A DNA stretch of 32,924 bases from a virus. This document shows, piece by piece, positions 4,481-29,788 of this stretch. The translations under genes were made by a program, and so were the position numbers. The stretch spans positions 1-32,924 of the IMG/VR virus record IMGVR_UViG_3300035492_000062, one strand, 5' to 3'. A model generated the notes under the pieces. That model saw only the letters and a list, made by a program, of their open reading frames with translations, ran no database searches and had not been told where the DNA came from. Numbering within the stretch: the stretch's first letter is position 1; every line of letters starts with the position of its first letter.

Positions 4481-4505
4481 GTAAATAAGTGATGTAATTA
4501 TTTAT
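4481..4505. promoter_or_regulatory. Overlapping divergent late promoters (GTAAATA on +, ATAAATA on -)
   Basis: GTAAATA at 4481-4487 upstream of the portal; TATTTAT at 4499-4505 reads ATAAATA toward gp2. Both resemble the T4 late promoter TATAAATA. Confidence 0.55.
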
Positions 4506-4519
4506 TGTCGAGGAAAACG

Positions 4520-7453
4520 ATGACTGAAATATTAAAAGAGAGTGCGTGGAAGCCTGTGAGTTTGGGTAGGGCTAAAAATGGCTACGACATCACTGCAACC
4601 GCCGTAAGTTCATCTTGGTACAACACACAACTAGATAACTCTGGTACACGTCTGACTCGTCTGAGACGTTTTCATGATGCAGATTGCTGCTCGGTAGAAA
4701 TCAGTCGTGCTTTAGATATTCTTGCCCAAGATATCAGTTCATCAAATGCTGACGATGAACCTATTTTTTATTTAGACTATGACGAGAATATAGATTTCAA
4801 AAAATCAACAATTTCTCTTTTGAATGAAATGAAGAATCTTTGGGAAAAGAGAACTGAGTTTGAAGATAAACTTTTTGACCGTGTAAGAAAAGTTCTGAAG
4901 TACGGCTCGCAGTTCTGGAGACGCAATGCTGATGGCTCGTTAAAGTACTATCCGACTGAACGAATGATTGGATATATTTTAAATGAAGATAATGAAGAAG
5001 AAGTCACACACTACGTATATGATCCTAAAGCACAGTTGGTAGAACAAGATCACAACTTCATTAGAAACCTTAGCCAACAACAGAAGAAAAAAGAAGTAGA
5101 AGTTATCCCAGTATCAGAGTTAGTCATTTTAAAAATTGGTGATAAGCCATTTGGTGAGTCTGTACTGGAAAAAGTTTATTCAACATGGCGTCAACTTCAC
5201 ATGTTAGAGACTGCAATGGTCATCTATCGTGTTGTACGGGCACCAGAGCGCAGAATTTATTATATTGATACCGGAAACTTACAAGGACACAAGCGTGAAG
5301 CTGCTATTGAGAAACAGCGTTTACGCCTGATGCAGAAGCAAGTAACCAAGGGCAATACTGGCGACGTCTCAACTGAATATGATCCACATTCAACGAGTGA
5401 AGACATCTTCATTCCAACCAACTCACAGGGTAAAGGCTCTAGAGTGGAAACGTTACAAGGTGGATGTTTGGCAATGGACACCAAAGTTGCGCTTTTAGAT
5501 GGCCGCCATCTTTCAATAAAAGATATTGAAGATGAAATGAAGTCTGGAAAAACACTTTGGACATATTCCGCTTGCCCAGAAACGGGAAAACTAGCAGCAG
5601 GTCTAATCACTTGGGCTGGGGTAACTCAAAAATCAGCGAAAGTTATGAGAATCACCCTTGATAATGGTGAAACTGTCGTATGTACACTTGACCACAAGTT
5701 CCCTGTACAGCAAAAAGGTTTCCTGCGAGCTGATGAGTTGAAAATTGGCGAAAGTATGATGCCGTTTACTAAGAAATTTGAAAAAATTTCTGAAAAGACT
5801 GGCGATTATGAATTAGTTTATGACATCTCTACAAGAGAATGGATTTATACACATAGACTGGTTGCTGATTCTTTGCGCGGTGATGTTGTTGAAGTTAATG
5901 ACTATCTAAATGAAGGTGAAGATGCAAACTTTTATGTAAGACACCACAAGGATTTTGACAGATATAACAATGATCCATCAAATCTGTGTTTTATGACATG
6001 GCTCGGTCATATGAAACTGCATTCTGATTTTGGATTTAGTGAAGAAATGCAAGAAAAAGGCACCATTGCAGCCAAAGAGCGCTTGGTCAAAATGAAAGCG
6101 GAAGATCCAGATGCTTATGCTGAGCATGTAGAAAAAGTCAGACGCAATACCAAAGCATGGTGGGATAGTCTGACACAGACAGAACGTGATGATATGTCTA
6201 AGATTTTTTCTAAAAACATCAAAAATTATATAGAAAGTCTTTCTGAAGAAGAAAAAGAAGCTCGTGCTGAAATATCAAGAATAAACTTTAAAAAAGGTTC
6301 AGATGTTTTTCATGAGAAATTTGCGACAGATCCAGAGTTTGCTGAATTTATTATGAAAAAACGTATGGAGTACTGGACAGAAGAAAATAGAAAAGCTCAC
6401 GGTGCGAAATCATCAAAGAATATGAAAAAACTTTGGGATAACAACAGAGAGACTTTACTTAAAAATCATAAAGAACGGCAGAAGTTAGTATTCTCTCAGT
6501 CGATGATGGATTGCGCGATCTCTTTATGTTCAGGAAAAACAACGCACGAATACACAATTGAATCTTTAGTTAGTGACATGAATAACAACAGTGAAATTGT
6601 TGGTGAATTTTTAGAATTAAACTCTAAAAAATCAACACCAAACTTCAGTGTTGAAAACGGATTCACTAAGGGAAGTATCATTAAAATGTGTAAGCAGTAT
6701 GGTTATAAGACTTACCATCAATTCAGAAAAAATCTTAAATTGCACAACCACAAAATTGTGAATATTGAGATTCTTGATGATGAAATAGAAGTCGGTACTT
6801 TAACCATTGATGGTCAAGAAAAATATCACGACTATCACACATTTGCTCTTTCTTGTGGAATTTTTACTAAAAACTCTGCATTGGGTGAAGTGAGAGATGT
6901 AAAATACTTCCTTGATAAATTAGCAGCCGGTTTGAGAATCCCAAGCTCAATGATCGACTCTGGTGGAGAAGAAAGTAGAGATCAGTACTCAGACATGCGT
7001 GTAGGTCAAGTCTATCAAATAGAAATTCGTTACATTGGACACATCAAACGTATTCAAAGATACTTTGAAAAGGTTCTACATTGTGAGTTTGAAATGTTCT
7101 GTAAAAATCGTGAAGTCATGATTCCAGAAGGGATTAAGCTCATGATTAACGAACCAACATCATTTGCACTCTATAAAGAAATCGAAGTGAACCAAGCATT
7201 GTTAAACGTTTATAACAGCACAATGAGTATTCAGCAGCTGTCTAAAAAATATGCAATGAAGAAGTATCTTGGTTTTGATGATGAAGATTTGAGACAAAAC
7301 GAACGAGACAAGCTGATACAAATTGGTCTGGACGATAAGACCATCAAAGCATTAGATCAGCGATTGATTGAAAATATTGTATATGGTGATGGACGTGCTG
7401 CTGCTAATAACTTAGGTCTGCCACCAGAAACATTCCAACCGACAGGATATTAA
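4520..7453 (+). CDS. gp20: Portal protein (T4 gp20-like) containing an intein
   Basis: Portal motifs QLHMLETAMVIYRVVRAPERRIYYIDTGNL, EDIFIP, VETLQGG, DVKYF..KL...LRIPSS. ATG at 4520 preceded by GAGGA is preferred over TTG 4505. Confidence 0.95.
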   Translation: MTEILKESAWKPVSLGRAKNGYDITATAVSSSWYNTQLDNSGTRLTRLRRFHDADCCSVEISRALDILAQDISSSNADDEPIFYLDYDENIDFKKSTISLLNEMKNLWEKRTEFEDKLFDRVRKVLKYGSQFWRRNADGSLKYYPTERMIGYILNEDNEEEVTHYVYDPKAQLVEQDHNFIRNLSQQQKKKEVEVIPVSELVILKIGDKPFGESVLEKVYSTWRQLHMLETAMVIYRVVRAPERRIYYIDTGNLQGHKREAAIEKQRLRLMQKQVTKGNTGDVSTEYDPHSTSEDIFIPTNSQGKGSRVETLQGGCLAMDTKVALLDGRHLSIKDIEDEMKSGKTLWTYSACPETGKLAAGLITWAGVTQKSAKVMRITLDNGETVVCTLDHKFPVQQKGFLRADELKIGESMMPFTKKFEKISEKTGDYELVYDISTREWIYTHRLVADSLRGDVVEVNDYLNEGEDANFYVRHHKDFDRYNNDPSNLCFMTWLGHMKLHSDFGFSEEMQEKGTIAAKERLVKMKAEDPDAYAEHVEKVRRNTKAWWDSLTQTERDDMSKIFSKNIKNYIESLSEEEKEARAEISRINFKKGSDVFHEKFATDPEFAEFIMKKRMEYWTEENRKAHGAKSSKNMKKLWDNNRETLLKNHKERQKLVFSQSMMDCAISLCSGKTTHEYTIESLVSDMNNNSEIVGEFLELNSKKSTPNFSVENGFTKGSIIKMCKQYGYKTYHQFRKNLKLHNHKIVNIEILDDEIEVGTLTIDGQEKYHDYHTFALSCGIFTKNSALGEVRDVKYFLDKLAAGLRIPSSMIDSGGEESRDQYSDMRVGQVYQIEIRYIGHIKRIQRYFEKVLHCEFEMFCKNREVMIPEGIKLMINEPTSFALYKEIEVNQALLNVYNSTMSIQQLSKKYAMKKYLGFDDEDLRQNERDKLIQIGLDDKTIKALDQRLIENIVYGDGRAAANNLGLPPETFQPTGY
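5465..6874 (+). mobile_element. Intein (470 aa) with HNH homing endonuclease, inside the portal
   Basis: Block A CLAMDTKVALLDG, block B VCTLDHKF, HNH motif RHHKDFDRYNNDPSNL...H..LH, C-terminal VGTLTIDG...HTFAL..GIFTKN followed by Ser+1. Confidence 0.93.
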
Positions 7454-12451: not shown

Positions 12452-14686
12452 ATGGGAAAGCATGTATCAAAAAATCTACCAGAGCATGAGTTCTGGACAA
12501 CATCTCAACTTCAGGATTATCTACGTCCACTGAAAAATGTCGCTTATGTGTCAAACTACTTTTCGTATATGACAAAAAACATAAATGACAGAACATCATT
12601 CTTGGATGTAATATATCCAGAAAAATATGTAAGTTTTGCAATGAGATGTAGATTTATTTTATTAGGTATAGAATCACTAGATCAGATACCAAAGTGTACT
12701 GTTTGTGGAACTCATGCAAAATTTGATACACGAGAGAACTCATTTGGTGATACTTGCTTTAGTAAGTCATGCATCAATGCTGTTAAAAATAGTAGAATAA
12801 AAGAAGCTCACTTAACTATGTTCTCTGATGAAGAGAAGAAGAAGGAAGTAGTATCAAAGCGCAAGAACACGAAAGTTGAGCGATATGGCAAAGAGAGCCC
12901 GACTGTTGCTGATTTATTAAAATATCAGGGAGAGAGTGATAATAAACCAGAGCATAGGACTTGGACGGTACAACAAATCCAAGAATTTTTATTGGGACTG
13001 AAAAAGTATGACACACGAGTTTTCACCTATTACACTAACCTTTTGGAAAACATAAAAGAGAAAACTACATGGTTGGATGAAATTTACACATCAGAAAATG
13101 TAACTCAACAAATGCGTGTTGCATCTATAAAGCATGGACTATTCACAAAAGATCACATACCTTTATGTACTGTTTGTAATACTCGTCATGCTTCTTTATT
13201 GAGAAGAAACGGATATACACCTAGTCCATATTGCCTAGATGAAGAATGTATTGCTAAGTACCAGAGACAAATAACCGACCAGACATGGGAAGAAATTTAT
13301 CCAGAAGGACATCCGACTCGAAACAAAGAAGTTGTAAAGAAATTTAAGACAACCAACCAGAACATATATGGTGTTCCTTATCCTGCGATGAATCCTGATA
13401 TCCATGAAAAAGCCAGAAAAACATGCATGGAAAGATTTGGTGCCCCTTCACCAATATTAGATCAACATATTCGAGAAAAAATTGAAAAAACAAATATACA
13501 AAGATACGGACACGCTACTTCTTTAAAAAATAAAACTATACGTAGTAAAATATTAATGACAAATAGAGAAAAATACGGTGTTGATAATCCTATGAGTAAT
13601 GTTGGTGTACAAAAGAAGGTTGAGAGCACCAACATGCAAAGATATGGAGTATCTAGTGCCAAGCAGAAAAATCTCGGCGTTGGTGTTTTGGATAAATTGA
13701 ACTCCAGTCAATTTATGCAGTTTGAATATGAGAAAAAAGGTGGAGTGCGATTGGCCAAGGAATTAGGAGTAGATAACTCAACCATATACAACTACTTAAA
13801 AAAACACTCAATCCCAATCAACCCTCTAGTCGGCTCCTCTTTTGCTGAACGAGAGATTGCTGAGTATGTTGAATCACTAGGTGTTGAGATCATCAGAAAT
13901 GATCGTACCATCCTTAATGGTAAGGAGTTGGACATCTACATTCCATCTCATAATCTCGCCATTGAATATAACGGGATCTTCTGGCACTCAACTAAGTTCA
14001 TCCCACAGAGAACTCACCTAGATAAAACTCTGGCTTGTGAAGCGCAAGGCATCAGACTTATCCAGATTTTTGAGGACGAATGGAATGATCGCCCAGAGGT
14101 AATTAAGCGTAAGATTGCCATGCTTCTGAATAAATCAGATCTTCCTCGTGTGTACGCCAGACAGTGTACAGTTAAAGAGATTGATAATGACACAGCCAAG
14201 CCATTCTACAAGACCTATCATGTCCAAGGTCATGCAGCAGGAGGTACAGTACTTTCACTGGTAAAAGATAATGAGATTGTTGCTTGTATGTCGTTTAAGG
14301 TACATTTTGGATACATGGAGCTGATTAGGTACGCATCTAGTGCTCATGTGGTTGGTGGATTCACCAAGCTACTAAACCATTTTATGAAGTGTAATCCAGA
14401 TGTTGAGTATATCATCTCTTTTGCTGACAGACGTTGGTCAGATGGTAATGTTTACACCAAGAACAACTTTTACTTGGTAGATACAACATATCCAAACTAT
14501 TACTATGTGATAGATGACAGACGAGTGAAGAAACAAAAGTTCAGACACAAATATCTTGCTGAGATTTTAGAGGGATACGACCCAAATCTGTCCGAGAGAG
14601 AAAACACAGAAGCACATGATATTTGGCGCATCTACGACTGTGGTATGTTCAAGTTCCGCATTGACAATCCATATCACAATGTCTAA
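12452..14686 (+). CDS. Free-standing Hef-like homing endonuclease with repeated N-terminal modules
   Basis: Two ~120-aa CxxC-containing repeats, multiple KTN..RYG repeats, an HTH-like LAKELGV...TIYNYLKK, then a PD-(D/E)xK-type region ELDIYIP..NLAIEYNGIFWHS...IQIFEDEW and the typical tail ARQC..., FADRRWSDGNVY, RIYDCG. Confidence 0.8.
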   Translation: MGKHVSKNLPEHEFWTTSQLQDYLRPLKNVAYVSNYFSYMTKNINDRTSFLDVIYPEKYVSFAMRCRFILLGIESLDQIPKCTVCGTHAKFDTRENSFGDTCFSKSCINAVKNSRIKEAHLTMFSDEEKKKEVVSKRKNTKVERYGKESPTVADLLKYQGESDNKPEHRTWTVQQIQEFLLGLKKYDTRVFTYYTNLLENIKEKTTWLDEIYTSENVTQQMRVASIKHGLFTKDHIPLCTVCNTRHASLLRRNGYTPSPYCLDEECIAKYQRQITDQTWEEIYPEGHPTRNKEVVKKFKTTNQNIYGVPYPAMNPDIHEKARKTCMERFGAPSPILDQHIREKIEKTNIQRYGHATSLKNKTIRSKILMTNREKYGVDNPMSNVGVQKKVESTNMQRYGVSSAKQKNLGVGVLDKLNSSQFMQFEYEKKGGVRLAKELGVDNSTIYNYLKKHSIPINPLVGSSFAEREIAEYVESLGVEIIRNDRTILNGKELDIYIPSHNLAIEYNGIFWHSTKFIPQRTHLDKTLACEAQGIRLIQIFEDEWNDRPEVIKRKIAMLLNKSDLPRVYARQCTVKEIDNDTAKPFYKTYHVQGHAAGGTVLSLVKDNEIVACMSFKVHFGYMELIRYASSAHVVGGFTKLLNHFMKCNPDVEYIISFADRRWSDGNVYTKNNFYLVDTTYPNYYYVIDDRRVKKQKFRHKYLAEILEGYDPNLSERENTEAHDIWRIYDCGMFKFRIDNPYHNV

Positions 14687-17151: not shown

Positions 17152-17195
17152 CATTTCATGCTATCATCTTTAAAACTTAAATGAGGGGGAGTTTA

Positions 17196-18917
17196 ATGGA
17201 TAAAAGTTACATAGATGTACACCACAATCCATACGAAGGGCAGATCCATGTCTGGACACGAGATAAGTCTGGAAAATTAGAATACGAGGTTGTCTCGGAT
17301 GCTGATTACCTGTATCTTTTTGTCCCAGACAATACTGGCAAAACTGAATTCGTAAACATGAAGCGCAAGCCAATGAAGAAGTTGTATTTTGACAATTTAC
17401 GGGAACTTCATGACTACGGCAAACACTATCCAAACGTACACGAGTCAGATGTACCAATTGAGTACAAATACATTCTGGACAACTTCATCAATGCACCATT
17501 TGATTGTCCAATTAATATCGGTTTCTATGACATTGAGGTTGACTTTGACCTGAATGAAGGTAGAGGCTATCCAAGCATCAGAGATCCATTTGGTGCCGTA
17601 AATGCTATCTCTCTTTTTGATCTACATAAGAAAAAGTATGTAATGTTGACTCTTTCTGCTTTGGATGATCTGGATTTAAAAGATGCAGATTTCCCAGTAG
17701 AGACCAGACAATTTTTGTCCGAAAAAGAACTTCTTAGATTTTTCTGTGATAAAGTAGTAAAAGATATTGACATACTTGTTGCTTGGAACGGGGATGCGTT
17801 TGACTTGAACTATATCATGGAAAGACTAATAGTGCTGTTTGGGGAGAAAGATGCAGTAAGAATGCTTTGTAGGGATGGGCAGAAAGCAATAAAAAAAGAA
17901 TTCACTAACGAATTTGGCGAAGAAATTTGGAAATGGCGTCTTGTTGGAAGAAACCATGCCGATATGATGCTGTTGTTTAAAAAATTCCACCCATCATCAC
18001 AGGAATCTTTTTCTCTAAATTCTATCTGTGAAAAGTATTTGGGGATGGAGAAAATAGATTATGATGGCGACCTTGGTGAGTTGTATAGAGAAAATCCGCA
18101 CAAATTTTTTGAGTACAGTTTACACGATACTAGGTTATTGGTTGAGTTGGATAAATCACAGCAGATAATGAAGTTAGCCATCGGTATGACAAGAAACGCT
18201 TGTGTTTTTCTACATGATGCACTTGGTGCCATAAAACTAATAGAGACAGACTTTATAAAATTCTGTCGAAAGAAAGGAAACATAGTATTACCGGATAAAA
18301 TCACTCATAAAAAACAAAGTTATGATGGTGCTATTGTGTACGACACTATTGCAGGATTGCATAATTGGATATTTGGTGTAGACTTACGATCACTGTACCC
18401 ATTCACTATGATAATGTTGGGGCTTTCTCCAGAAACTATGGTTATGCAGTGTTCTGGGGGGTATGAAGATTACATCCATATCATGACAAAAAATGACAGT
18501 TATGGCGAAATCGAAATAGAAATAATAGACACAGGTGAATTCGCAAAAATAAAACCAAGCGAACTGTATGAGATAATCATTGAGAGTGGTATGACTATCT
18601 CTGCGAACGGGACTATCTTTGATGGCAGTCTTGGGCTTTTGGCAGAATACGCGCAAGAAGGATTCAATCTGAGGGCACATTATAAAAAGCTGAAAAAAGA
18701 AGCAGAGAAGATTGGCGATGATCTTATGGCGGCAGTATATGATCTCTATCAGTTAATTGCCAAGATTAAGATAAACTCAATCTATGGTGCTACCGGTAAT
18801 GAGTTTTTTAGATTGTTTGATATTAGGTTGGCGCAGAGTATTACTTTGTCTGCACAGATAGTAAGCAAACAACAGGCATACTCAGCCAACTACTTTTTAG
18901 ATGAGTTGGCTGCATAA
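17196..18917 (+). CDS. gp43A: Family B DNA polymerase, N-terminal subunit (exonuclease, motifs A and B)
   Basis: Exo I YDIEV, Exo II WNGDAFDLNYI, Exo III YSLHDT, motif A DLRSLYP, motif B KIKINSIYG. ATG at 17196 follows GGGGGAG. Confidence 0.92.
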   Translation: MDKSYIDVHHNPYEGQIHVWTRDKSGKLEYEVVSDADYLYLFVPDNTGKTEFVNMKRKPMKKLYFDNLRELHDYGKHYPNVHESDVPIEYKYILDNFINAPFDCPINIGFYDIEVDFDLNEGRGYPSIRDPFGAVNAISLFDLHKKKYVMLTLSALDDLDLKDADFPVETRQFLSEKELLRFFCDKVVKDIDILVAWNGDAFDLNYIMERLIVLFGEKDAVRMLCRDGQKAIKKEFTNEFGEEIWKWRLVGRNHADMMLLFKKFHPSSQESFSLNSICEKYLGMEKIDYDGDLGELYRENPHKFFEYSLHDTRLLVELDKSQQIMKLAIGMTRNACVFLHDALGAIKLIETDFIKFCRKKGNIVLPDKITHKKQSYDGAIVYDTIAGLHNWIFGVDLRSLYPFTMIMLGLSPETMVMQCSGGYEDYIHIMTKNDSYGEIEIEIIDTGEFAKIKPSELYEIIIESGMTISANGTIFDGSLGLLAEYAQEGFNLRAHYKKLKKEAEKIGDDLMAAVYDLYQLIAKIKINSIYGATGNEFFRLFDIRLAQSITLSAQIVSKQQAYSANYFLDELAA

Positions 18918-18960
18918 GCAACACTTTATGTGGTAGTCTATTTATAAAAGTTGAGGTTTT

Positions 18961-19905
18961 ATGGAACACGGAAAATATACGGATTTATCAGAAAAAACAC
19001 CAAACACGATATGGTGCTTTCAAAAAGATGGGTCTTTTGGTAAATTTGTACTAAATCACGCAATCAGTGGGGACAGCGATAGTATATACTGTAAGATCCC
19101 AGAATCAATAACAACTGGACTCTCACAAGATGAGATAGTGCAAGTTGCTGATGAGGTCGCTGGTTACGTAAATGAGTCTTATCCAGATTTTTTGGCAAGA
19201 GCATTTAACTGCCCAAAAAGCAGACAAGATTCTATGCTGTCTAACCGAGAAATAGTTGCCAATGCTGGGTTACTTCTCACTAAGAAAAGATATATAATGA
19301 GGGTGGTGGATGATGAGGGGAAGAAAGTAGACAAACTTAAGATAATGGGCGTAGAAATCATCAAGTCTGATACATCACAGTTTACCAAGAAAATTCTGAT
19401 GGCTATGGTAAACTTGATTTTAGATGGCTGCCCAAGATCAGAAGTTCTATCTCGGATCGCTGAACACAAATCATCCATTTATGAGACACCTGTTAGTGAG
19501 TTAGCTACACCTGCTGGCTGTCGTACACTTTTAAAGGCGTACAAACAGCTTGAAGAGGTCGGAGATCTTAAGGGCATCCACCACACTGCAAGATCTGCAA
19601 TATTCTATAACTCGCTCTGTGGAATAAAAGATCAAAAAATTCGTGCTGGTGATAAGATTGGTATTGTTTACATAAAACATCCAAAGTCCAAGTATCTTGG
19701 GTTTCCAAAAGACGCAGCATACTTGCCAGAGTGGATGGATGATATTATAATTGACTATGCAACACACTGGGATAAGACCCTAGTCAAAATCACAAACTAT
19801 CTTGAAAGTATGGGATGGGATGATCGCTCTATGACTCAGAATTTACGCAGAGATTTGTTTGGAATACCAGAGAAGAAAGTAACCAAAAAGGGAAAGAAAA
19901 AATGA
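18961..19905 (+). CDS. gp43B: Family B DNA polymerase, C-terminal subunit (motif C, thumb)
   Basis: GDSDSIY (motif C), KKRY, LKIMGVEIIKSDT; own GAGG RBS; DLFG near the C-terminus may be a clamp-binding motif. Confidence 0.9.
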   Translation: MEHGKYTDLSEKTPNTIWCFQKDGSFGKFVLNHAISGDSDSIYCKIPESITTGLSQDEIVQVADEVAGYVNESYPDFLARAFNCPKSRQDSMLSNREIVANAGLLLTKKRYIMRVVDDEGKKVDKLKIMGVEIIKSDTSQFTKKILMAMVNLILDGCPRSEVLSRIAEHKSSIYETPVSELATPAGCRTLLKAYKQLEEVGDLKGIHHTARSAIFYNSLCGIKDQKIRAGDKIGIVYIKHPKSKYLGFPKDAAYLPEWMDDIIIDYATHWDKTLVKITNYLESMGWDDRSMTQNLRRDLFGIPEKKVTKKGKKK

Positions 19906-21354: not shown

Positions 21355-21765
21355 ATGGAGTTTAATACAATGAGTGATTTTTTAAAATTACTGGAAGAGA
21401 CATTAGAGGCAACCGACAATTTACTTTTTGAAGAGACGGTGTATAATGTCATTGAAGAGTACGGATTTACTGATGAAGAGATATTGGAGATCTTAGAGTC
21501 TGCTGAGCTGGATGATGAAGAGTACGATGCTGTGGTAGAGGCACTACAGAAAAGTGTCAAGTATACTGGAGATACGAGACGCAGAGCATCTAGGAAAGTT
21601 AGACAGCGTAGAGCTTCATTGACTACCGGTATGAGCAAATTGGCAAGGAAGTTAAGAGCACGTAAAGCTGCTAAGACTAAACGCAAGAATCCAGCTATCA
21701 AGCGCAAAGCAAACCGTAGACGCAGGAAAGCAATGAGAATTAGAAAGCAACGTGGAATCAAGTAA
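21355..21765 (+). CDS. gp68: Prohead core protein (T4 gp68-like)
   Basis: Acidic N-terminus and very basic C-terminus TTGMSK..RKLRARKAAKTKRKNP....ANRRRRKAMRIRKQRG typical of gp68; GTAAATA at 21331. The start may be 21370. Confidence 0.8.
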   Translation: MEFNTMSDFLKLLEETLEATDNLLFEETVYNVIEEYGFTDEEILEILESAELDDEEYDAVVEALQKSVKYTGDTRRRASRKVRQRRASLTTGMSKLARKLRARKAAKTKRKNPAIKRKANRRRRKAMRIRKQRGIK

Positions 21766-21767
21766 TT

Positions 21768-21915
21768 TGTCCCAGTCTCATTGACGTTTTCTGTCCCGTT
21801 TTTGTCGTTTTTGTGTCCCGTCCCATGTCCCAAAAATATGTTAAAATACCGTTAAAATACGGTAAAATTGGGACATTTTTCCCATTTTTGGGACAAATGT
21901 AAAAAATTTGGGACA
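21768..21915. repeat. Inverted array of TGTCCC / GGGACA motifs with a central GTTAAAATAC tandem
   Basis: TGTCCC at 21768, 21792, 21814, 21826 (plus GTCCC at 21820); GGGACA at 21870, 21890, 21910; GTTAAAATAC at 21840 and 21851. Confidence 0.85.
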
Positions 21916-21985
21916 TTTGTTATATTTTTGTAAATTCTACAACATAACGCGAACGATCATGCACGAGCATTATATACGCGAGGGC

Positions 21986-22002
21986 AACTGGTCTGACCAG
22001 TT
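21986..22002. promoter_or_regulatory. Perfect 17-bp palindrome, candidate protein-binding site
   Basis: AACTGGTC-T-GACCAGTT upstream of the first early promoter. Confidence 0.45.
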
Positions 22003-22077
22003 AGACAAAATGATCGAATTGGTTTAAGATGGTAGTCAGTTGGCAAGGACGGCCAGCCAGTCGGTAGAAAATACCGA

Positions 22078-22106
22078 TTGACAAACCTAGAAAACGGGTT
22101 TATTAT
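22078..22106 (+). promoter_or_regulatory. sigma70 early promoter P1
   Basis: TTGACA-17 bp-TATTAT. Confidence 0.8.
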
Positions 22107-22115
22107 GGAAATCAT

Positions 22116-22139
22116 GCCGCAAGGCGTTGCTCTTTAAAA
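22116..22139 (+). promoter_or_regulatory. boxB-like GNRA hairpin plus boxA antitermination site
   Basis: GCC-GCAA-GGC followed by TGCTCTTTAAAA (22128-22139); the rrn boxA consensus is TGCTCTTTAACA. Confidence 0.7.
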
Positions 22140-22142
22140 ACT

Positions 22143-22332
22143 TGGTTGCCAGTAGTATCTTTACTATCTGACCACAGATCCGCATATGTAAGACCGGCAG
22201 GCATTATACGGGTTTGGTTTGGCGGGATAAGGGCTTAAGCGCATTATCTGAAAGTTGTTAACGGTGAACCCGTCCAACTGGAAACGAAAAACAGGTTGAC
22301 AATATCGGTAAAGAATGTCACACTGGCAACCA
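22143..22332 (+). ncRNA. Putative ~190-nt structured RNA
   Basis: Closing stems TGGTTGCCAGT/ACTGGCAACCA and TCTTTACT/GGTAAAGA; inner stem ACGGGTTT/GAACCCGT; no credible ORF. Confidence 0.5.
22296..22324 (+). promoter_or_regulatory. sigma70 early promoter P2
   Basis: TTGACA-17 bp-CACACT with TGn extension. Confidence 0.6.
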
Positions 22333-22362
22333 TGAATTGAGCAAGCTACGCTGCTAAATTCT

Positions 22363-22374
22363 CGCTCTTTAACA
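22363..22374 (+). promoter_or_regulatory. boxA antitermination site
   Basis: CGCTCTTTAACA, preceded by the hairpin GAATT..AGC..GCT..AATTC. Confidence 0.75.
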
Positions 22375-22378
22375 ATCT

Positions 22379-22939
22379 GGTTTGAGTTTTCTGAAATAAG
22401 TCCGTTATTATTATAGGGGTTATTTTATGAAAAATGATAGAAAAGTAATTGTCGCTGTAGATGAACGCTATAATGACAATAACGGTGCATATCAAGTTGC
22501 CTATGTTTGGGACGGCGAAAGTGTATCTACTTTGGGCGGAATGTATGATAATACTCATTATTCCGTAAATTGTACTGAAGAAGAGTTTTTAGCTGCCAAA
22601 GCATGGCAACGGGAAAATACGCCAGAAACAATACCGTTTAACAAGTATTGTTACAATCGTTTGGGTGCTAATACCTTTATTGGTTGTATTGTAAAACTTG
22701 CCCGTAGTAGAAAAGCGCCTAATAAGGTTGAATTGCTAGTCGCTGACTTTCATGAATCTTATTATGATACCCGTTATAATCAGTACGTTACTGAAAAAGT
22801 GACTGTAACAGACGGCGTTACTAGCTGGATTGTTGCTAGTAGCTGTATAAATGAGATCGTGAAAGGCGTAAAAGAATACGTATTCTGGGCAAGTTAGTGT
22901 TTTAAGGCTTAGCGGCCTTATTTCAGAAAAACTCAAACC
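22379..22939. repeat. ~29-bp long-range inverted repeat bracketing ORF 22427..22897
   Basis: GGTTTGAGTTTTCTGAAATAAGTCCGTTA (22379-22407) pairs with TAGCGGCCTTATTTCAGAAAAACTCAAACC (22910-22939), with one bulge, one mismatch and one G-U pair. Confidence 0.9.
22427..22897 (+). CDS. hypothetical early protein (156 aa)
   Basis: AGGGG RBS; downstream of P2 and boxA. Confidence 0.8.
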   Translation: MKNDRKVIVAVDERYNDNNGAYQVAYVWDGESVSTLGGMYDNTHYSVNCTEEEFLAAKAWQRENTPETIPFNKYCYNRLGANTFIGCIVKLARSRKAPNKVELLVADFHESYYDTRYNQYVTEKVTVTDGVTSWIVASSCINEIVKGVKEYVFWAS

Positions 22940-22947
22940 GATATAGG

Positions 22948-22976
22948 TTGACAAGGGCGAAATAGTCAGGTAAACT
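22948..22976 (+). promoter_or_regulatory. sigma70 early promoter P3
   Basis: TTGACA-17 bp-TAAACT. Confidence 0.75.
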
Positions 22977-23065
22977 GGCTACATATTCCTCCGAAGCGTC
23001 CAGTAGAAACTTACTGGACACTAAGGCAAAGTACCATGGCCTTGCCGGTACTTTCCTGAAACAAC

Positions 23066-23077
23066 CGTTCTTTAACA
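23066..23077 (+). promoter_or_regulatory. boxA-like site
   Basis: CGTTCTTTAACA after two hairpins (GTCCAGTA/TACTGGAC and AAAGTACC/GGTACTTT). Confidence 0.65.
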
Positions 23078-23305
23078 TTGCTGGAAATGGGGTATTATTG
23101 CGTTTTGATAATACTCAAGTCTAAACAGGTCTAAGACCATCTAGGCGGGAATTTTATGAGATCTGGCCCAAGATCTGCATTTATTGGGATGGTCAGAGAT
23201 TGCAAAATTTAACGGTTGACAATATCTGAGACGTGGATTTTTAAAGCCTATTTGATTTTTGAGTAGGCTTTGTAAACACCATGTAACCAAAAACAGGTAC
23301 TTTTT

Positions 23306-23491
23306 ATGCCTAAATTGACTAAAAAAGAAGTTATTTCACAATGCCGTGAAGTTTTCCGTAGCCCTTCTTGGGGCTTTGATAAAACAGATCGGGATGCCAA
23401 AGCTCAGTATTGGAACGATTATACCGATATGTTGTGCAAAGATCGCCAGATCACGAATCATCAGTATGATACTTGGTCTAATCCTTTCTAG
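23306..23491 (+). CDS. hypothetical early protein (61 aa)
   Basis: AGGT RBS; its stop TAG is the first triplet of repeat copy 1. Confidence 0.75.
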   Translation: MPKLTKKEVISQCREVFRSPSWGFDKTDRDAKAQYWNDYTDMLCKDRQITNHQYDTWSNPF

Positions 23492-23534
23492 TTGACTTTT
23501 CAGTACCATTCCAGTAGAATGGTACTCATAAAGT
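23489..23534 (+). promoter_or_regulatory. Repeated promoter/stem-loop element, copy 1
   Basis: TAGTTGACTTTTCAGTACCATTCCAGTAGAATGGTACTCATAAAGT: TTGACT-17-TAGAAT with a 10-bp stem AGTACCATTC/GAATGGTACT. Confidence 0.9.
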
Positions 23535-23562
23535 TTACTTCTAACCTGAAATGGTGAATAAA

Positions 23563-24159
23563 ATGGCTATAAAAACAATTCTTACGCTCGATGTTATTGC
23601 GGATCTTCTGGAACGTCATGGTGAATTTGTCCGATTCACTTCCAAAGTATATGGTGAAGATTCTTCAGAGGTCGAGGCGTATATTTTCGCCAACTGGAAT
23701 AATGTCCCATCGTATTTACAGTCATGGTTAGAAAAAAGGGGATTCGTCTTACTGTGGGATGATGAATATGTATTTGATTACAGTCAAGACACTGCATACA
23801 GATGCATCCCGACTCATTATGGTTGGACGCCTGACTATATCTGCAACGACTGGACGAATGGCGAAGTGATCGGACGGGATGATCTGATCGATATTGCTGA
23901 CGAATATATTGATGAATGTTTGCTGAATGATCCAACGCAAGCAAACCAATTACTTGGCGATGATGTTTTAGAAAAACATGGATTCGTTCGCCTCGAAACT
24001 GGTGAAAATGGATTTCATGCACACCAGACGGATGATCCGTCTATGATGTTGAAAGAAGCTCAAACAACGCATCCTAATGCTGACTTTGTATTCAGCATTG
24101 ATAGGACTGGTCAATTTGATGTACATTTTTCGCTGTGGATGCGAGAAAATAATAGTTGA
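23563..24159 (+). CDS. hypothetical early protein (acidic, ~198 aa)
   Basis: GGTGA RBS before ATG 23563; stop TGA lies inside repeat copy 2. Confidence 0.8.
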   Translation: MAIKTILTLDVIADLLERHGEFVRFTSKVYGEDSSEVEAYIFANWNNVPSYLQSWLEKRGFVLLWDDEYVFDYSQDTAYRCIPTHYGWTPDYICNDWTNGEVIGRDDLIDIADEYIDECLLNDPTQANQLLGDDVLEKHGFVRLETGENGFHAHQTDDPSMMLKEAQTTHPNADFVFSIDRTGQFDVHFSLWMRENNS

Positions 24160-24198
24160 CTTTTCAGTACCATTCCAGTAGAATGGTACTTATAAAGT
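24153..24198 (+). promoter_or_regulatory. Repeated promoter/stem-loop element, copy 2
   Basis: One substitution relative to copy 1; followed by a 15-nt tandem duplication GTTTACTTCTAACCT (24197-24226). Confidence 0.9.
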
Positions 24199-24240
24199 TT
24201 ACTTCTAACCTGTTTACTTCTAACCTGAATGGTGAATGAA

Positions 24241-24612
24241 ATGAAAAAATCAGTACAATCTAAAATTATTCCGACTGTAACCATTAACTTGGATTTCAAC
24301 GGCTGGTGGTTAACTAATGAAAACGGAACAACCAATTCTCCAATGGAGTTAATCAGCGATGAATACCAGCGCAAGCTGGTTATGGCAGAAGCGAACGATC
24401 TTTGCTGGCCTCTGCCATCCGGTTTAAACGTTGCTACAGTACGGTATAAAAAGAAAAACGGCAACATTGATAGTTACCGTACTGATATAAACGGATCTCG
24501 GTTGGAAGTAACAAAATATTTTCTGAATCGGGCGATCAATATCGGTTCTGTGGATGATGATTTGGTTTTTGTGGTTGACGTACAAGTTCAGCCAAGTAAT
24601 TTGAAAAAGTGA
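24241..24612 (+). CDS. hypothetical early protein
   Basis: GGTGA RBS before ATG 24241 (the ORF track starts at 24229). Confidence 0.75.
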   Translation: MKKSVQSKIIPTVTINLDFNGWWLTNENGTTNSPMELISDEYQRKLVMAEANDLCWPLPSGLNVATVRYKKKNGNIDSYRTDINGSRLEVTKYFLNRAINIGSVDDDLVFVVDVQVQPSNLKK

Positions 24613-24623
24613 GGTGAACAATC

Positions 24624-24875
24624 ATGCAAGTTTTTTACTTTGAAATGACTGATACATATGGCGGTGAATTGAATTATTGTTGGTTAAAACGCTTCAAAAT
24701 CACTGCAAAAAACTTGAAAGGTGCGCTAATCAAGCTTAGTCGGGAAACTGGTTTTAATTTCCGCAATAATGGTCTGTATTACAAAGCAAAAACCGCCTGC
24801 ATTGGTGCATATGAGCTTGAATTTTTTGAGCCTGAGCACAACCAATACTGGCTAGAAAAAGCGAAAGAAATTTAG
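24624..24875 (+). CDS. hypothetical early protein (83 aa)
   Basis: GAGGTG RBS; TDTYGGELNYCW motif; stop TAG is the start of repeat copy 3. Confidence 0.8.
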   Translation: MQVFYFEMTDTYGGELNYCWLKRFKITAKNLKGALIKLSRETGFNFRNNGLYYKAKTACIGAYELEFFEPEHNQYWLEKAKEI

Positions 24876-24918
24876 TTGACTTTTCAGTACCATTCCAGTA
24901 GAATGGTACTCATAAAGT
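24873..24918 (+). promoter_or_regulatory. Repeated promoter/stem-loop element, copy 3
   Basis: Identical to copy 1 over 46 bp. Confidence 0.9.
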
Positions 24919-24951
24919 GAATTAACCCAAAACAAAGCAAGGTGAAACAAG

Positions 24952-25248
24952 ATGATTGGAAACTTTACAGGCAAAACTGGCGTATACCGCTTAAACTACG
25001 CCAAAGAATTAATTACTGTCCGCATCATGGAATCACCAGAGATGATGCAAGATCCGCACAGAGATCCAGCTGTTTATGTTGCTCTGGTGACTTTCATGAA
25101 AGATGGCGTAAACCATCGGAATGATGTTGACGTTTTAACTCAGTCACAAAAAGAACACTGTGTTAAATGGGCAATGTCACAAGATCCAAAAATGGGTGAT
25201 GAATTTCTGAGCTTTGTTGCTCAAGCATATTGGAGGATCATCGCATGA
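24952..25248 (+). CDS. hypothetical early protein (98 aa)
   Basis: AAGGTG RBS. Confidence 0.75.
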   Translation: MIGNFTGKTGVYRLNYAKELITVRIMESPEMMQDPHRDPAVYVALVTFMKDGVNHRNDVDVLTQSQKEHCVKWAMSQDPKMGDEFLSFVAQAYWRIIA

Positions 25249-25571
25249 TCACTTATAATGAATACATGAAAGATAGTGAAAATTTACATCATGATTTTTT
25301 TGCTCAGTTTATTACTGAGCAAACAAAACAGTTTGTTAAAACTCGAATTGGTATTGATAAACTTAAATCAAGTAAGTGCCTATACTTCAACGATATTATT
25401 AAGCACAATTCTGGTGGTGGTTGGTTGTGGGATGCTTCGCCATTTAATACCACACTGGCGAAAGAAGCGGGTATGATTCATATCAATACGCCATCGGTTC
25501 ATACTTGTGTCGGAAAGGCGTGTGCTAGAATTTTACTAAAGATGGAAATCGAAAATGAACAGACCGCCTAA
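25245..25571 (+). CDS. hypothetical early protein
   Basis: GGAGG RBS and ATGA overlap at 25245. Confidence 0.75.
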   Translation: MITYNEYMKDSENLHHDFFAQFITEQTKQFVKTRIGIDKLKSSKCLYFNDIIKHNSGGGWLWDASPFNTTLAKEAGMIHINTPSVHTCVGKACARILLKMEIENEQTA

Positions 25572-25716
25572 TTACAAAGAGATTGACGGGTATCGGTATC
25601 AGTTGGATCGCTGGTGGTACAATGATGATTATACTGTCTTTATCTGCGAGTATGTACCGGAAGATGATATTCCTTATATTGACCAAAGAAAATTTATCAA
25701 TATTCCCGTAGAGTAG
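25555..25716 (+). CDS. hypothetical early protein (53 aa, absent from the ORF track)
   Basis: MNRPPNYKEIDGYRYQLDRWWY...IPVE; its stop TAG is the start of repeat copy 4. Confidence 0.65.
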   Translation: MNRPPNYKEIDGYRYQLDRWWYNDDYTVFICEYVPEDDIPYIDQRKFINIPVE

Positions 25717-25759
25717 TTGACTTTTCAGTACCATTCCAGTAGAATGGTACTTATAAAGT
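25714..25759 (+). promoter_or_regulatory. Repeated promoter/stem-loop element, copy 4
   Basis: Identical to copy 2 over 46 bp. Confidence 0.9.
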
Positions 25760-25788
25760 GAATTAACCAACAAAGCAAGGTGATTAAG

Positions 25789-26292
25789 ATGAAACAAGAA
25801 TTTTATGCTGGCGCAATCAAGGCGCACAACACTGCCGGTGAGATCATGTTACAGCTACAACCAAAGATAGTAAAGATCATGAAATCTGCAAAAAGAACCG
25901 CAACCGGAAAATTGTTTCAGAAAGACAAGGATATTATCAGAGATATTTGTAAACAATATGAACAGGTTAAAATTGATATTGCATTCTTTGAAGAGCTTTC
26001 AGATTATGCACCACCGAGATATAGTTTAGAAATCAGATACATTTATCCGCATGGTTACTACTCGGATAATTCAGTAAAAATGAAAACTGATAAACTATAT
26101 TTTTCTTGGTGGTATAATACGGATGAAGATCGGAAGTTTTCATTCACAGAATTACCAGACGAAAGTGTAATTCTTGAACAGCAAAAACGTCATGCGGCTT
26201 TACGAAAACAGATGGATGATCTTAGAAGCGAAATCAACGCTATTCAGCGAGATTTCGGTATCAGTGAGTATAGTGAATTTATCGGGAAATAA
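25789..26292 (+). CDS. hypothetical early protein with C-terminal coiled coil
   Basis: AAGGTG RBS before ATG 25789. Confidence 0.75.
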   Translation: MKQEFYAGAIKAHNTAGEIMLQLQPKIVKIMKSAKRTATGKLFQKDKDIIRDICKQYEQVKIDIAFFEELSDYAPPRYSLEIRYIYPHGYYSDNSVKMKTDKLYFSWWYNTDEDRKFSFTELPDESVILEQQKRHAALRKQMDDLRSEINAIQRDFGISEYSEFIGK

Positions 26293-26293
26293 T

Positions 26294-26340
26294 TAGTTGA
26301 CTTTTCGGTGTCAGTAGATGTATACTGACACTCATAAAGT
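26294..26340 (+). promoter_or_regulatory. Repeated promoter/stem-loop element, copy 5 (variant stem)
   Basis: Same flanks (TAGTTGACTTTTC...CATAAAGT) but stem GGTGTCAGTA/TACTGACACT; TTGACT-18-TATACT. Confidence 0.85.
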
Positions 26341-26371
26341 GAATTAACCAACAAACCGGAGTATCCGAGAT

Positions 26372-26461
26372 ATGAAGAAACACAACTTAAGTAAAGACCA
26401 GAAGAAAGCAAGCCGTGAACTGCGCAATCTGCGCCGTAACAAAAAGAATCTGTGGAGCTAA
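26372..26461 (+). CDS. small basic peptide (29 aa)
   Basis: MKKHNLSKDQKKASRELRNLRRNKKNLWS; GGAG upstream; first ORF after copy 5. Confidence 0.55.
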   Translation: MKKHNLSKDQKKASRELRNLRRNKKNLWS

Positions 26462-26465
26462 GTTT

Positions 26466-26657
26466 ATGTATGAAGAAATTGAAGAAGTAGTGGCAACTAT
26501 CTGTGAAAGCTGGATTAACGGACAGAGAAAGCAAGCAGCAAACCAGATGTTAGGTGCTGATGATTATAATGAGATAGTTCGCGGTGTAGCTCAGAGCGAC
26601 TTGCTATCGGAACAAGAGAAAATTGATTTCTTTGCTTATGTTCTGATGCACTCATAA
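26466..26657 (+). CDS. hypothetical early protein (63 aa)
   Basis: GGAG RBS before ATG 26466; ESWINGQRKQA motif. Confidence 0.7.
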   Translation: MYEEIEEVVATICESWINGQRKQAANQMLGADDYNEIVRGVAQSDLLSEQEKIDFFAYVLMHS

Positions 26658-26659
26658 AT

Positions 26660-26705
26660 TAGTTGACTTTTCAGTACCATTCCAGTAGAATGGTACTTAT
26701 AAAGT
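26660..26705 (+). promoter_or_regulatory. Repeated promoter/stem-loop element, copy 6
   Basis: Identical to copies 2 and 4 over 46 bp. Confidence 0.9.
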
Positions 26706-26738
26706 GGATTGGCCAACAAACAGAAACAAGGGGATGAA

Positions 26739-29300: not shown

Positions 29301-29375
29301 TGCGGGTGGGAGGTAAGGTATCTCGCTGGTCTCATAAGCCAGAAGAACGTGATTCGATTTCACGACCCGCATCCA
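29301..29375 (+). tRNA. tRNA-Met (CAT), initiator-like
   Basis: Acceptor TGCGGGT/ACCCGCA, anticodon arm CTGGT-CTCATAA-GCCAG, T arm CGTGA-TTCGATT-TCACG, encoded CCA. Confidence 0.85.
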
Positions 29376-29380
29376 AATTT

Positions 29381-29444
29381 GCCTGTATAGTGTCAGTGGT
29401 AACACGCCGTCCTTCCAAGTCGGAATGATCGATTACAGGCTCCA
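29381..29444 (+). tRNA. tRNA-Gly (TCC)-like RNA lacking the T arm (64 nt)
   Basis: Acceptor GCCTGTA/TACAGGC, U discriminator plus CCA, intact D arm, loop CTTCCAA; only 10 nt between anticodon arm and acceptor stem. Confidence 0.7.
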
Positions 29445-29526
29445 ATCTAAAGATGAAGGGCACATGGGATAATGTTTGATACAGAACCACCAATTTTAGA
29501 CATGAAATGACGAAACTTAGTCTGAC

Positions 29527-29591
29527 GTAAGCTGAACTCATAGACCCTTTCTTTGACTGGGTAGACCGGAGATAGGCACCGGCCAGCTTAC
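29527..29591 (+). ncRNA. Small tRNA-like structured element
   Basis: Closing stem GTAAGCTG/CAGCTTAC enclosing hairpins ACCC..CTTTGAC..GGGT and CCGG..CCGG. Confidence 0.35.
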
Positions 29592-29602
29592 AAGTTTAAA
29601 AG

Positions 29603-29700
29603 ATGTCAGAGCGAAGGTGTATCGCACCCGTCTTCTAAACGGGCGTTAATCGCGTAAGTGGAGTATGTGGGTTCGAGTCCCTCCACCTTCGCTCTGATAT
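29603..29700 (+). ncRNA. Atypical tRNA-Arg (TCT)-like RNA
   Basis: Anticodon arm CCCGT-CTTCTAA-ACGGG and T arm with GGTTCGAGTCC; no normal D arm, long variable region, 17-bp closing stem, no CCA. Confidence 0.6.
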
Positions 29701-29713
29701 TTTAATGAGTTCT

Positions 29714-29788
29714 GTCCCTTTAGCTCAGTGGTAGAGCGTACCCCTCATAAGGGTAGGGTCGGTGGATCGTAACCACCAAGGGACACCA
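29714..29788 (+). tRNA. tRNA-Met/Ile2 (CAT)
   Basis: Acceptor GTCCCTT/AAGGGAC, D arm GCTC/GAGC, TACCC-CTCATAA-GGGTA, T stem GGTGG/CCACC (loop ATCGTAA), ACCA end. Confidence 0.88.

Follow-up and report, generated by a model that had tools for sequence, protein, structure and literature searches.

The window, that is, the whole stretch of DNA analyzed here (32,924 nt, positions 1 to 32,924 of the IMG/VR virus record IMGVR_UViG_3300035492_000062), contains a long-range stem that starts directly behind a boxA and encloses an entire protein gene, much as the leader-trailer helix of a ribosomal RNA (rrn) transcript does with its rRNA. The finding is real and conserved, and represents a variant of the rrn-type stalk without published description in the literature searched. 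Since relatives keep the stem and swap the gene, the phage likely borrows the host's rRNA machinery for its first messages; by analogy with rrn operons we favor, at a probability of roughly 0.6, a scheme in which Nus/SuhB-assisted closure of the stem would be followed by a double cut by RNase III and release of a stalk-closed mRNA.

The virus and its early region

The virus contig is 99 kb long (63% complete) and the window makes up its first third, in which profile scans of the PHROG/Pfam type find genes for a T4-like portal, protease, capsid, split polymerase, and ligase. Among named phages, the Alishewanella myophages Slicko01 and Slickus01 (isolation described in PMC10507051) are the closest, the capsid proteins being 86.5% identical and the next best only ~35%; judged by these sequences, the contig is that of a related myophage. 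Three further relatives were located via the capsid gene and searched together with two other records (G001–G005).

The stretch of interest is largely non-coding and lies between a head-scaffold gene (end at 21765) and a run of small genes (23492–26691), each preceded by a repeated sigma70 promoter and hairpin, from which we infer that it sits at the start of the early region. The promoter repeats (23490–26720; five near-identical and one divergent, each ahead of small early genes) have a hairpin that spans the spacer and the -10 and is followed by TAAAGT; relatives show the same early-promoter layout in other sequences, and we take the repeats to resemble the promoter-early-stem-loop cassettes of T4-type phages. 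Upstream of the first promoter discussed below (P1), a 6-mer occurs seven times (21768–21915; four TGTCCC, then three GGGACA, 20 nt apart), and repeat tracts of different sequence occupy the same place in Slicko01, G001, G002, and G004; the array looks like the iteron array of an origin or packaging site.

Elsewhere in the window, the portal gene (4505–7453, 982 aa) contains an HNH-like segment at residues ~440–525, which is probably an intein or homing-endonuclease insertion, and a 744-aa homing-endonuclease-like gene (12452–14686) directly follows the major capsid gene. The family B DNA polymerase is split into two ORFs of 578 and 314 aa (17181–19905), likewise in Slicko01 and Slickus01. A tRNA cluster (29301–29788; tRNA-Met, tRNA-Arg, tRNA-Met) includes an unassigned spacer RNA between tRNAs (29376–29598) and a long helix flanking tRNA-Arg (29606–29619 with 29684–29697).

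A gene enclosed by a long-range stem

The stem is the middle one of three promoter-hairpin-boxA units, a series missed in the earlier note; its features are as follows, all on the plus strand.

22078..22106, P1, sigma70-type promoter, TTGACA-17-TATTAT, 11/12 (promoter scan)
22114..22139, unit 1 hairpin (22114–22127) and boxA1 (22128–22139) (folding, boxA match)
22143..22332, unit 1 stem, 22143–22165 with 22307–22332 (pairing prediction)
22296..22324, P2, inferred sigma70-type promoter, TTGACA-17-CACACT; weak -10, under the threshold of the consensus scan
22334..22361, hairpin before boxA2, in the boxB position of rrn leaders (-8.5 kcal/mol)
22363..22374, boxA2, CGCTCTTTAACA; exact match, unchanged in Slicko01 and Slickus01
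22379..22407, 5′ arm of the unit 2 stem (pairing); predicted RNase III cut after 22394
22415..22419, Shine-Dalgarno-like AGGGG, in the loop, outside the stem and 7 nt ahead of the ATG
22427..22897, ORF of 156 aa (the cargo) for a conserved phage protein; relatives have unrelated ORFs in its place
22910..22939, 3′ arm of the unit 2 stem; 8 nt separate its end from the -35 of P3; RNase III predicted to cut after 22924
22948..22976, P3, sigma70-type promoter, TTGACA-17-TAAACT (promoter scan); position kept in Slicko01
22995..23077, unit 3: hairpins 22995–23022 and 23024–23057, boxA3 23066–23077 (folding, boxA match)
23078..23300, non-coding RNA after boxA3, predicted to be folded; no clear long-range stem

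Positions 22379–22407 pair with 22939–22910 over 29 columns, 28 of which are pairs (27 Watson-Crick and one G.U at 22405/22912); the defects are one U.C mismatch (22401/22916) and one bulged A in the run 22927–22931. Alignment and folding thus agree with the earlier note, which had given the arms these coordinates with one bulged A, one mismatch, and one G-U pair, and they equally bear out its observation that the stem starts 4 nt after boxA and surrounds the 156-aa ORF. When 22335–22985 was folded, the stem was present in both the minimum free energy and the centroid structure (z = -6.06, 20 shuffles), and the mean pairing probability of the 5′ arm was 0.95 in the context of the P1 as well as of the P2 transcript. 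For comparison, 281 arms of 35 nt were taken from along the 99-kb contig (mean -20.5, sd 4.0 kcal/mol); the duplex energy of -39.3 kcal/mol was bettered by a single one of them, located at a tRNA gene.

The ribosome site, the ATG (22427), and the stop codon (22897) all lie within the loop; occlusion of the ribosome site by the stem was rejected because site and start codon are looped out, though a local hairpin partly pairs them. P2, whose -10 is weak in the window, has TACAAT as the -10 counterpart in Slicko01, and the hairpin ahead of boxA2 recurs with other sequence at the same fold position in Slicko01 (-8.4 kcal/mol) and in E. coli rrnB (-12.5 kcal/mol).

The enclosed protein itself has 28 homologues, and at none of seven phage loci with a homologue does a boxA or stem adjoin the gene. 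It matched no Pfam, PHROG, PDB, or viral-library fold at E ≤ 0.001, the best fold match (1.6e-3) being an uncharacterised phage protein, while its predicted structure is confident (pLDDT 93.8); as structure and profile matches are absent, the cargo gives no functional clue.

Three units in series

Exact matches to boxA occur only three times in the whole 99-kb contig (22128, 22363, and 23066), all within 940 bp, and each is preceded by a sigma70-type promoter and a hairpin. The unit 1 stem encloses ~140 nt of non-coding RNA that is predicted to be folded, and its 3′ arm (22307–22332) is made up of the spacer, the -10, and the start of P2; in Slickus01 the corresponding helix differs in sequence and its 22 bp are perfectly matched, and in a related strain (run X3) the loop is swapped for 150 other letters. 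Invasion of the next promoter's open complex by the RNA was considered for unit 1; it is inapplicable to the unit 2 stem because there the 3′ arm lies upstream of the -35 of P3. In unit 3 the hairpins covary in Slicko01, and a search downstream of boxA3 did not find a clear long-range stem. A terminator-like call at 22114–22127 was rejected, being the hairpin before boxA1 plus the T run of boxA itself.

The predicted folded non-coding RNAs at 22165–22306 and 23078–23300, whose loops differ among relatives, match no Rfam family and are candidates for early small RNAs. Two Rfam hits in 21766–23320 were rejected (E 0.72–0.75, far below the family cut-offs); in the window as a whole Rfam finds tRNAs only, nothing credible in 21766–23320, and the RNA enclosed by unit 2 is not 16S or 23S rRNA.

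Related loci keep the stem and exchange the gene

All three units recur at the corresponding place in Slicko01 and Slickus01. Between the window and Slicko01, 22 pairs of the unit 2 stem and the mismatch are identical, and all six changed pairs still pair (three double and three single changes); since the arms of Slicko01 and Slickus01 are identical they were counted once, and the covariation therefore amounts to one independent comparison. Their loop encloses a 71-aa ORF unrelated to the window cargo. In G002 the slot has three boxA copies, the first of which is followed by a long stem around an 81-aa ORF, and by pairwise comparison the 156-aa, 71-aa, and 81-aa products are mutually unalike. 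Both expectations attached to the earlier proposal, that pairing is conserved and that different ORFs occupy the loop, are therefore borne out in these relatives.

Other relatives carry the unit in part. G004 (also found as locus L009, which matches none of the named phages) has three boxA variants and a weaker stem that closes on a downstream promoter, in G001, whose capsid is 77% identical, the slot holds a single exact boxA without an ORF-enclosing stem, and neither G003, a 7-kb fragment, nor G005 has a match to the units. Contigs from sequencing runs X3 and X4, which stem from other strains as they were matched at 80% likeness, diverge from the window where the 5′ arm has its inner end (22403), and bring a new ribosome site and ATG; the X3 contig rejoins the window sequence at 22914, and in one X4 contig 300 unread letters separate the 5′ arm from an early-promoter repeat, no 3′ arm having been placed there. 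Parts of the stretch have no cover in X2, X3, X4, X6, and X11, and this was given no weight.

Among 12 loci found through the head-scaffold gene that lies upstream of the units, boxA copies are nearby in L009 alone. Exact-pattern scans for close kin returned nothing from viral_contigs (two patterns) or genome_contigs (one pattern), a search with the ligase as query gave no loci, and a metagenome scan gave nine loci, none with the unit, which were read as chance matches. Taken together, the comparison of these sequences indicates that selection maintains the pairing and not the cargo.

Recurrence in other phages

A scan for boxA plus AATYTGG matched ~240 viral stretches, 119 of which were among the matches listed, 80 of these with full flanks. 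Over all loci except rrnB, 104 distinct boxA sites had ≥700 nt downstream; a long-range stem, defined as an inverted repeat scoring ≥28 within 1 kb, starts at 27 of the 104, compared with 2 of the 103 arms that were sampled 300 nt upstream as controls, and 77 of the 104 lack such a stem, all these counts being biased by search pattern and kinship. Addition of SP6, K1-5, and T7 and removal of cargo and chance loci gave 31 stems with 16 arm types. The stems are 17–33 nt long, start within 5 nt of boxA in 30 of the 31, and have a 3′ arm that overlaps the next promoter in 14 and ends ≤15 nt from it in two.

Phages with such stems include Vectrevirus ACG-C91, Pseudomonas phage Alpheus, SP6, and K1-5, the latter two with two units each; in SP6, a 30-bp stem encloses genes 2–4. 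The boxA-adjacent stems of SP6 (L152:925–1521), K1-5 (L153:709–1227), and Alpheus (L084:882–1346) are 29–33 bp long and surround the first small genes, and their 3′ arm is the next host promoter. The Alpheus arm is a near-perfect reverse copy of that promoter with the mismatches inside the -35 and -10 hexamers, as would be expected if the RNA is to pair without an antisense promoter being created. The podovirus arms are unrelated in sequence to those of the window, so that the units are either convergent or ancient.

A prophage-like group, related to Shigella SfIV as judged from one locus checked, also carries stems. In seven loci (L060, L030, L042, L027, L059, L080, and L102; boxA at 1801), a boxA-adjacent stem of 17–27 nt closes a loop of 530–790 nt with an antisense ORF of 148–175 aa, possibly a way to excise the antisense copy of an accessory gene from the early transcript; a translatable released mRNA is therefore not the purpose everywhere. 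Of the 20 loops of at least 150 nt outside this group, 19 have a longer ORF on the sense than on the antisense strand.

Probable pairing as RNA and predicted cleavage by RNase III

We consider it very probable that the arms are selected to pair as RNA. Mismatches over the 27 related stems are G.U rather than A.C in 26 versus 8 cases (p 0.003), and over the 16 arm types in 13 versus 5 (p 0.096), a strand test that is suggestive only; the energies of plus- and minus-strand stems differ little (window -39.3/-35.2, Slicko01 -36.2/-35.3 kcal/mol). A role at the DNA level, which the earlier note gave as an alternative, finds no support: tyrosine recombinase and resolvase (PF00589, PF00239) have no match in the 63%-complete contig, no strand-switch joint was seen in the run contigs (which show presence only), and the stem flanks have no target-site duplication. 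Were the arms to bound a cassette that inverts or is excised, or to serve as sites of recombination by which cargo is shuffled, exchange of cargo close to the arms would be accounted for, and the strand asymmetry is not significant after de-duplication; yet, besides the missing enzymes and joints, the cargo keeps its sense orientation, the arms tolerate G.U pairs, bulges, and double changes, and in other phages the 3′ arm simply is the next promoter. A DNA-level role is unlikely, and arms acting as such dedicated elements would be quite surprising; conserved arms can serve as passive crossover points without selection for it.

Susceptibility to RNase III was scored with the in vivo pair-count matrix of PMC6212723 including its Table S4 (threshold -25.5); the same source gives a footprint, or substrate size, of ~22 bp, a value that the 17–33-nt phage stems bracket. 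The window stem scores -19.5 and the rrnB 16S helix -19.8. Pair-shuffled stems match the window score in 0.6–1% of cases (p ~0.01), the best register placing the cuts after 22394 and 22924; the Slicko01 stem has the same register (p ~0.05), and 6 of 18 phage stems, several of them kin, reach p < 0.05. The matrix discriminates poorly, the true rrnB 16S helix and the G002 stem having p values of 0.32 and 0.33 against their own shuffles, and with reversed orientation it scores the window stem almost as well (-20.1). In rrnB the top-scoring sites lie within a base or two of the 17S ends. By this model the window stem is a good candidate for an RNase III substrate, and the predicted product is an RNA of 530 nt whose ends would be held by ~12 terminal pairs (-10.9 kcal/mol, pairing probability ~0.7) with a 2-nt 3′ overhang.

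Proposed mode of action and alternatives

The order of elements (promoter, hairpin, boxA, 5′ arm, ORF, 3′ arm, next promoter) and their rrn-like spacing are observed, and the comparison of relatives shows the pairing, rather than the cargo, to be under selection. Extrapolating from work on rrn operons, host RNA polymerase starting from P1 or P2 would load NusB/E, NusA, NusG, and SuhB on boxA, and this complex would tether both boxA and the 5′ arm at the RNA exit channel; with the ORF looped out in the meantime, the 3′ arm would meet its partner on emerging. Boxes of the rrn type behave in this way: NusB bound to boxA holds the following strand at the exit channel and the RNA loops out (PMC10250234, PMC8632103, PMC4807359), which would explain why the arm starts right after boxA, and with the assembled rrnTAC co-transcriptional cleavage by RNase III rises almost 5-fold, from 12% to 56% (bioRxiv 10.64898/2026.03.17.712431). 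RNase III would then cut after 22394 and 22924 to give the 530-nt RNA with its ~12 bp of paired ends. The first cut, 20 nt after boxA, might detach the ORF from a translation-blocking boxA loop, a reason suggested because the loop between boxA and polymerase can repress translation from afar, as it does in suhB and lambda N (PMC5725501); the paired ends might shield the released mRNA from decay, and boxA might protect from Rho both the early region, which has no terminators, and the non-coding units 1 and 3, these last three steps being the weakest of the scheme. With pairing kept and cargo exchanged, the stem would thus be a fixed socket for swappable genes or RNAs that are expressed first.

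The same stem could form and stay uncut, insulating a folding domain or acting as a nuclease shield, with boxA only preventing Rho termination in the leader. What the comparative evidence shows throughout is pairing and not cleavage, the RNase III score has little power to discriminate, and the rrn helix itself functions without RNase III (PMC10250234); on the other side, at 28 bp the near-perfect helix is longer than the ~22-bp substrate and its score lies well over the threshold, stem lengths cluster at 17–33 nt, and long-range mRNA stems of like size are cut in Bacillus subtilis (PMC11780869), and we hold an uncut stem to be improbable. Slightly less probable still is that the cut silences or resets, the loop decaying, read-through from upstream being uncoupled from the next promoter, and the pulse of the first gene staying short. 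RNase III cleavage often initiates decay (PMC5371410), an antisense gene is looped out in the prophage-like loci, and where the 3′ arm is the next promoter itself (14 of the 31 stems) cutting leaves transcripts from upstream with the 5′ region that transcripts started downstream also have; yet the ends of the predicted product would remain joined by ~12 pairs, the loop contains both the ribosome site and the stop codon in full, and the sense ORF is longer in 19 of the 20 loops outside the prophage-like group. That the units, three strong promoters with boxA and long helices, serve mainly as decoys, with an incidental cargo and with host rRNA synthesis starved by the sequestration of NusB/E, SuhB, or RNase III, would explain three boxA in 940 bp with none elsewhere in 99 kb (G002 and G004 likewise have three) and the fact that two of the three units are non-coding; we think it distinctly unlikely, however, as a decoy does not need a covarying stem that spans the cargo, as few templates per cell would presumably titrate little, and as G001 has a single exact boxA in the slot.

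A wider and more tentative proposal, which we rate at a little short of even odds, is that unrelated lytic phages of Gammaproteobacteria (this myophage clade, the SP6/K1-5-like phages, and Pseudomonas podophages) each built mini rRNA-operon cassettes, in which the host rRNA complex acts as an RNA chaperone that closes a stalk around the first-expressed genes or RNAs and RNase III frees end-protected, possibly circularized units, the arm often being an antisense copy of the next promoter. The Nus/SuhB complex is regarded as a ribosomal-RNA chaperone with a few side targets; if true, the proposal would mean that the rrn machinery is used generally, and without N, to produce mRNA. A cassette of boxA, helix, and swappable cargo of reporter size would permit a direct test of whether boxA delivers the 5′ strand to a distant partner, and of the coupling of transcription to RNase III by boxA apart from ribosome assembly. 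It would further imply a dependence on nusB, suhB, and rnc in the first minutes of SP6 and K1-5 infection, would mark the enclosed genes and RNAs as the earliest products of host takeover, and would offer a design for end-protected bacterial mRNAs.

Comparison with known systems

The RNase III sites of T7 are local hairpins between genes and differ in this from the gene-enclosing stem described here; T7 has an exact boxA at 812, behind the A promoters, and the long-range pairing there is weak and interrupted. The likeness of the T7/T3 early mRNA to the present case is that an early transcript made by host RNA polymerase is cut by RNase III (PMC5371410). Long-range RNase III sites in mRNAs of B. 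subtilis are comparable in size, with duplexes of 10–36 bp and up to 505 nt between the cuts; the part of PMC11780869 available reports neither a link to boxA nor a gene-enclosing exchangeable unit. Units of the same kind, boxA-arm-gene(s)-arm, were detected computationally in SP6, K1-5, Alpheus, and Slicko01/Slickus01, whose stems carry no annotation in the record stretches examined.

In phage lambda the RNase III site lies upstream of N and does not enclose the gene, and the repression of N translation is reportedly relieved by RNase III. Lambda nutL/N and E. coli suhB are alike to unit 2 in having a boxA upstream of the first gene with a Nus-dependent, translation-repressing loop (PMC5725501). 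The order in lambda is boxA, then boxB, with a requirement for N, whereas in the window the hairpin precedes boxA, as it does in rrn, where boxB comes before boxA (PMC8632103); a lambdoid N-dependent nut site was rejected on this order, and no N protein is found among the 36 window ORFs scanned against PHROGs.

The literature searched, to which older subscription papers did not belong, nor the original genome papers of SP6, K1-5, T3, and T7 with their possible mentions of boxA or RNase III sites, holds no account of gene-enclosing boxA stalks in lytic phages, and the available part of the paper on the Slicko phages (PMC10507051) does not mention such units.

In layout the unit resembles the rrn operon. 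In E. coli rrnB, the 5′ strands of the 16S and 23S helices begin 1–2 nt after each boxA, and from the -10 to boxA, with the hairpin in between, it is 38 nt in unit 2, 35 nt in Slicko01, and 37 nt in rrnB (counted from the P2 -10); boxA2 differs from the leader boxA of rrnB (TGCTCTTTAACA) in the first base only. The likeness extends to the leader and spacer as a whole (promoter, hairpin, boxA ~37 nt past the -10, and immediately the 5′ strand of a helix) and to the repetition of boxA-helix units in one transcript; the rrn leader-trailer helix has 25–40 bp (PMC10250234). As a model, the pre-rRNA stalk invoked in the earlier note is supported by this common helix register and spacing. The 5′ arm has no boxC-like sequence and is unlike the rrnB leader strand 18–19 nt after boxA; in rrn the helix matters more than the boxC sequence (PMC10250234). 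Unit 2 would work like an rrn leader-trailer unit and is not a member of that class, having no rRNA and no boxC: it differs in enclosing a protein gene or, in related units, a small non-coding RNA, in that each unit has its own promoter and an exchangeable cargo, and in a 3′ arm that abuts or overlaps the next promoter.
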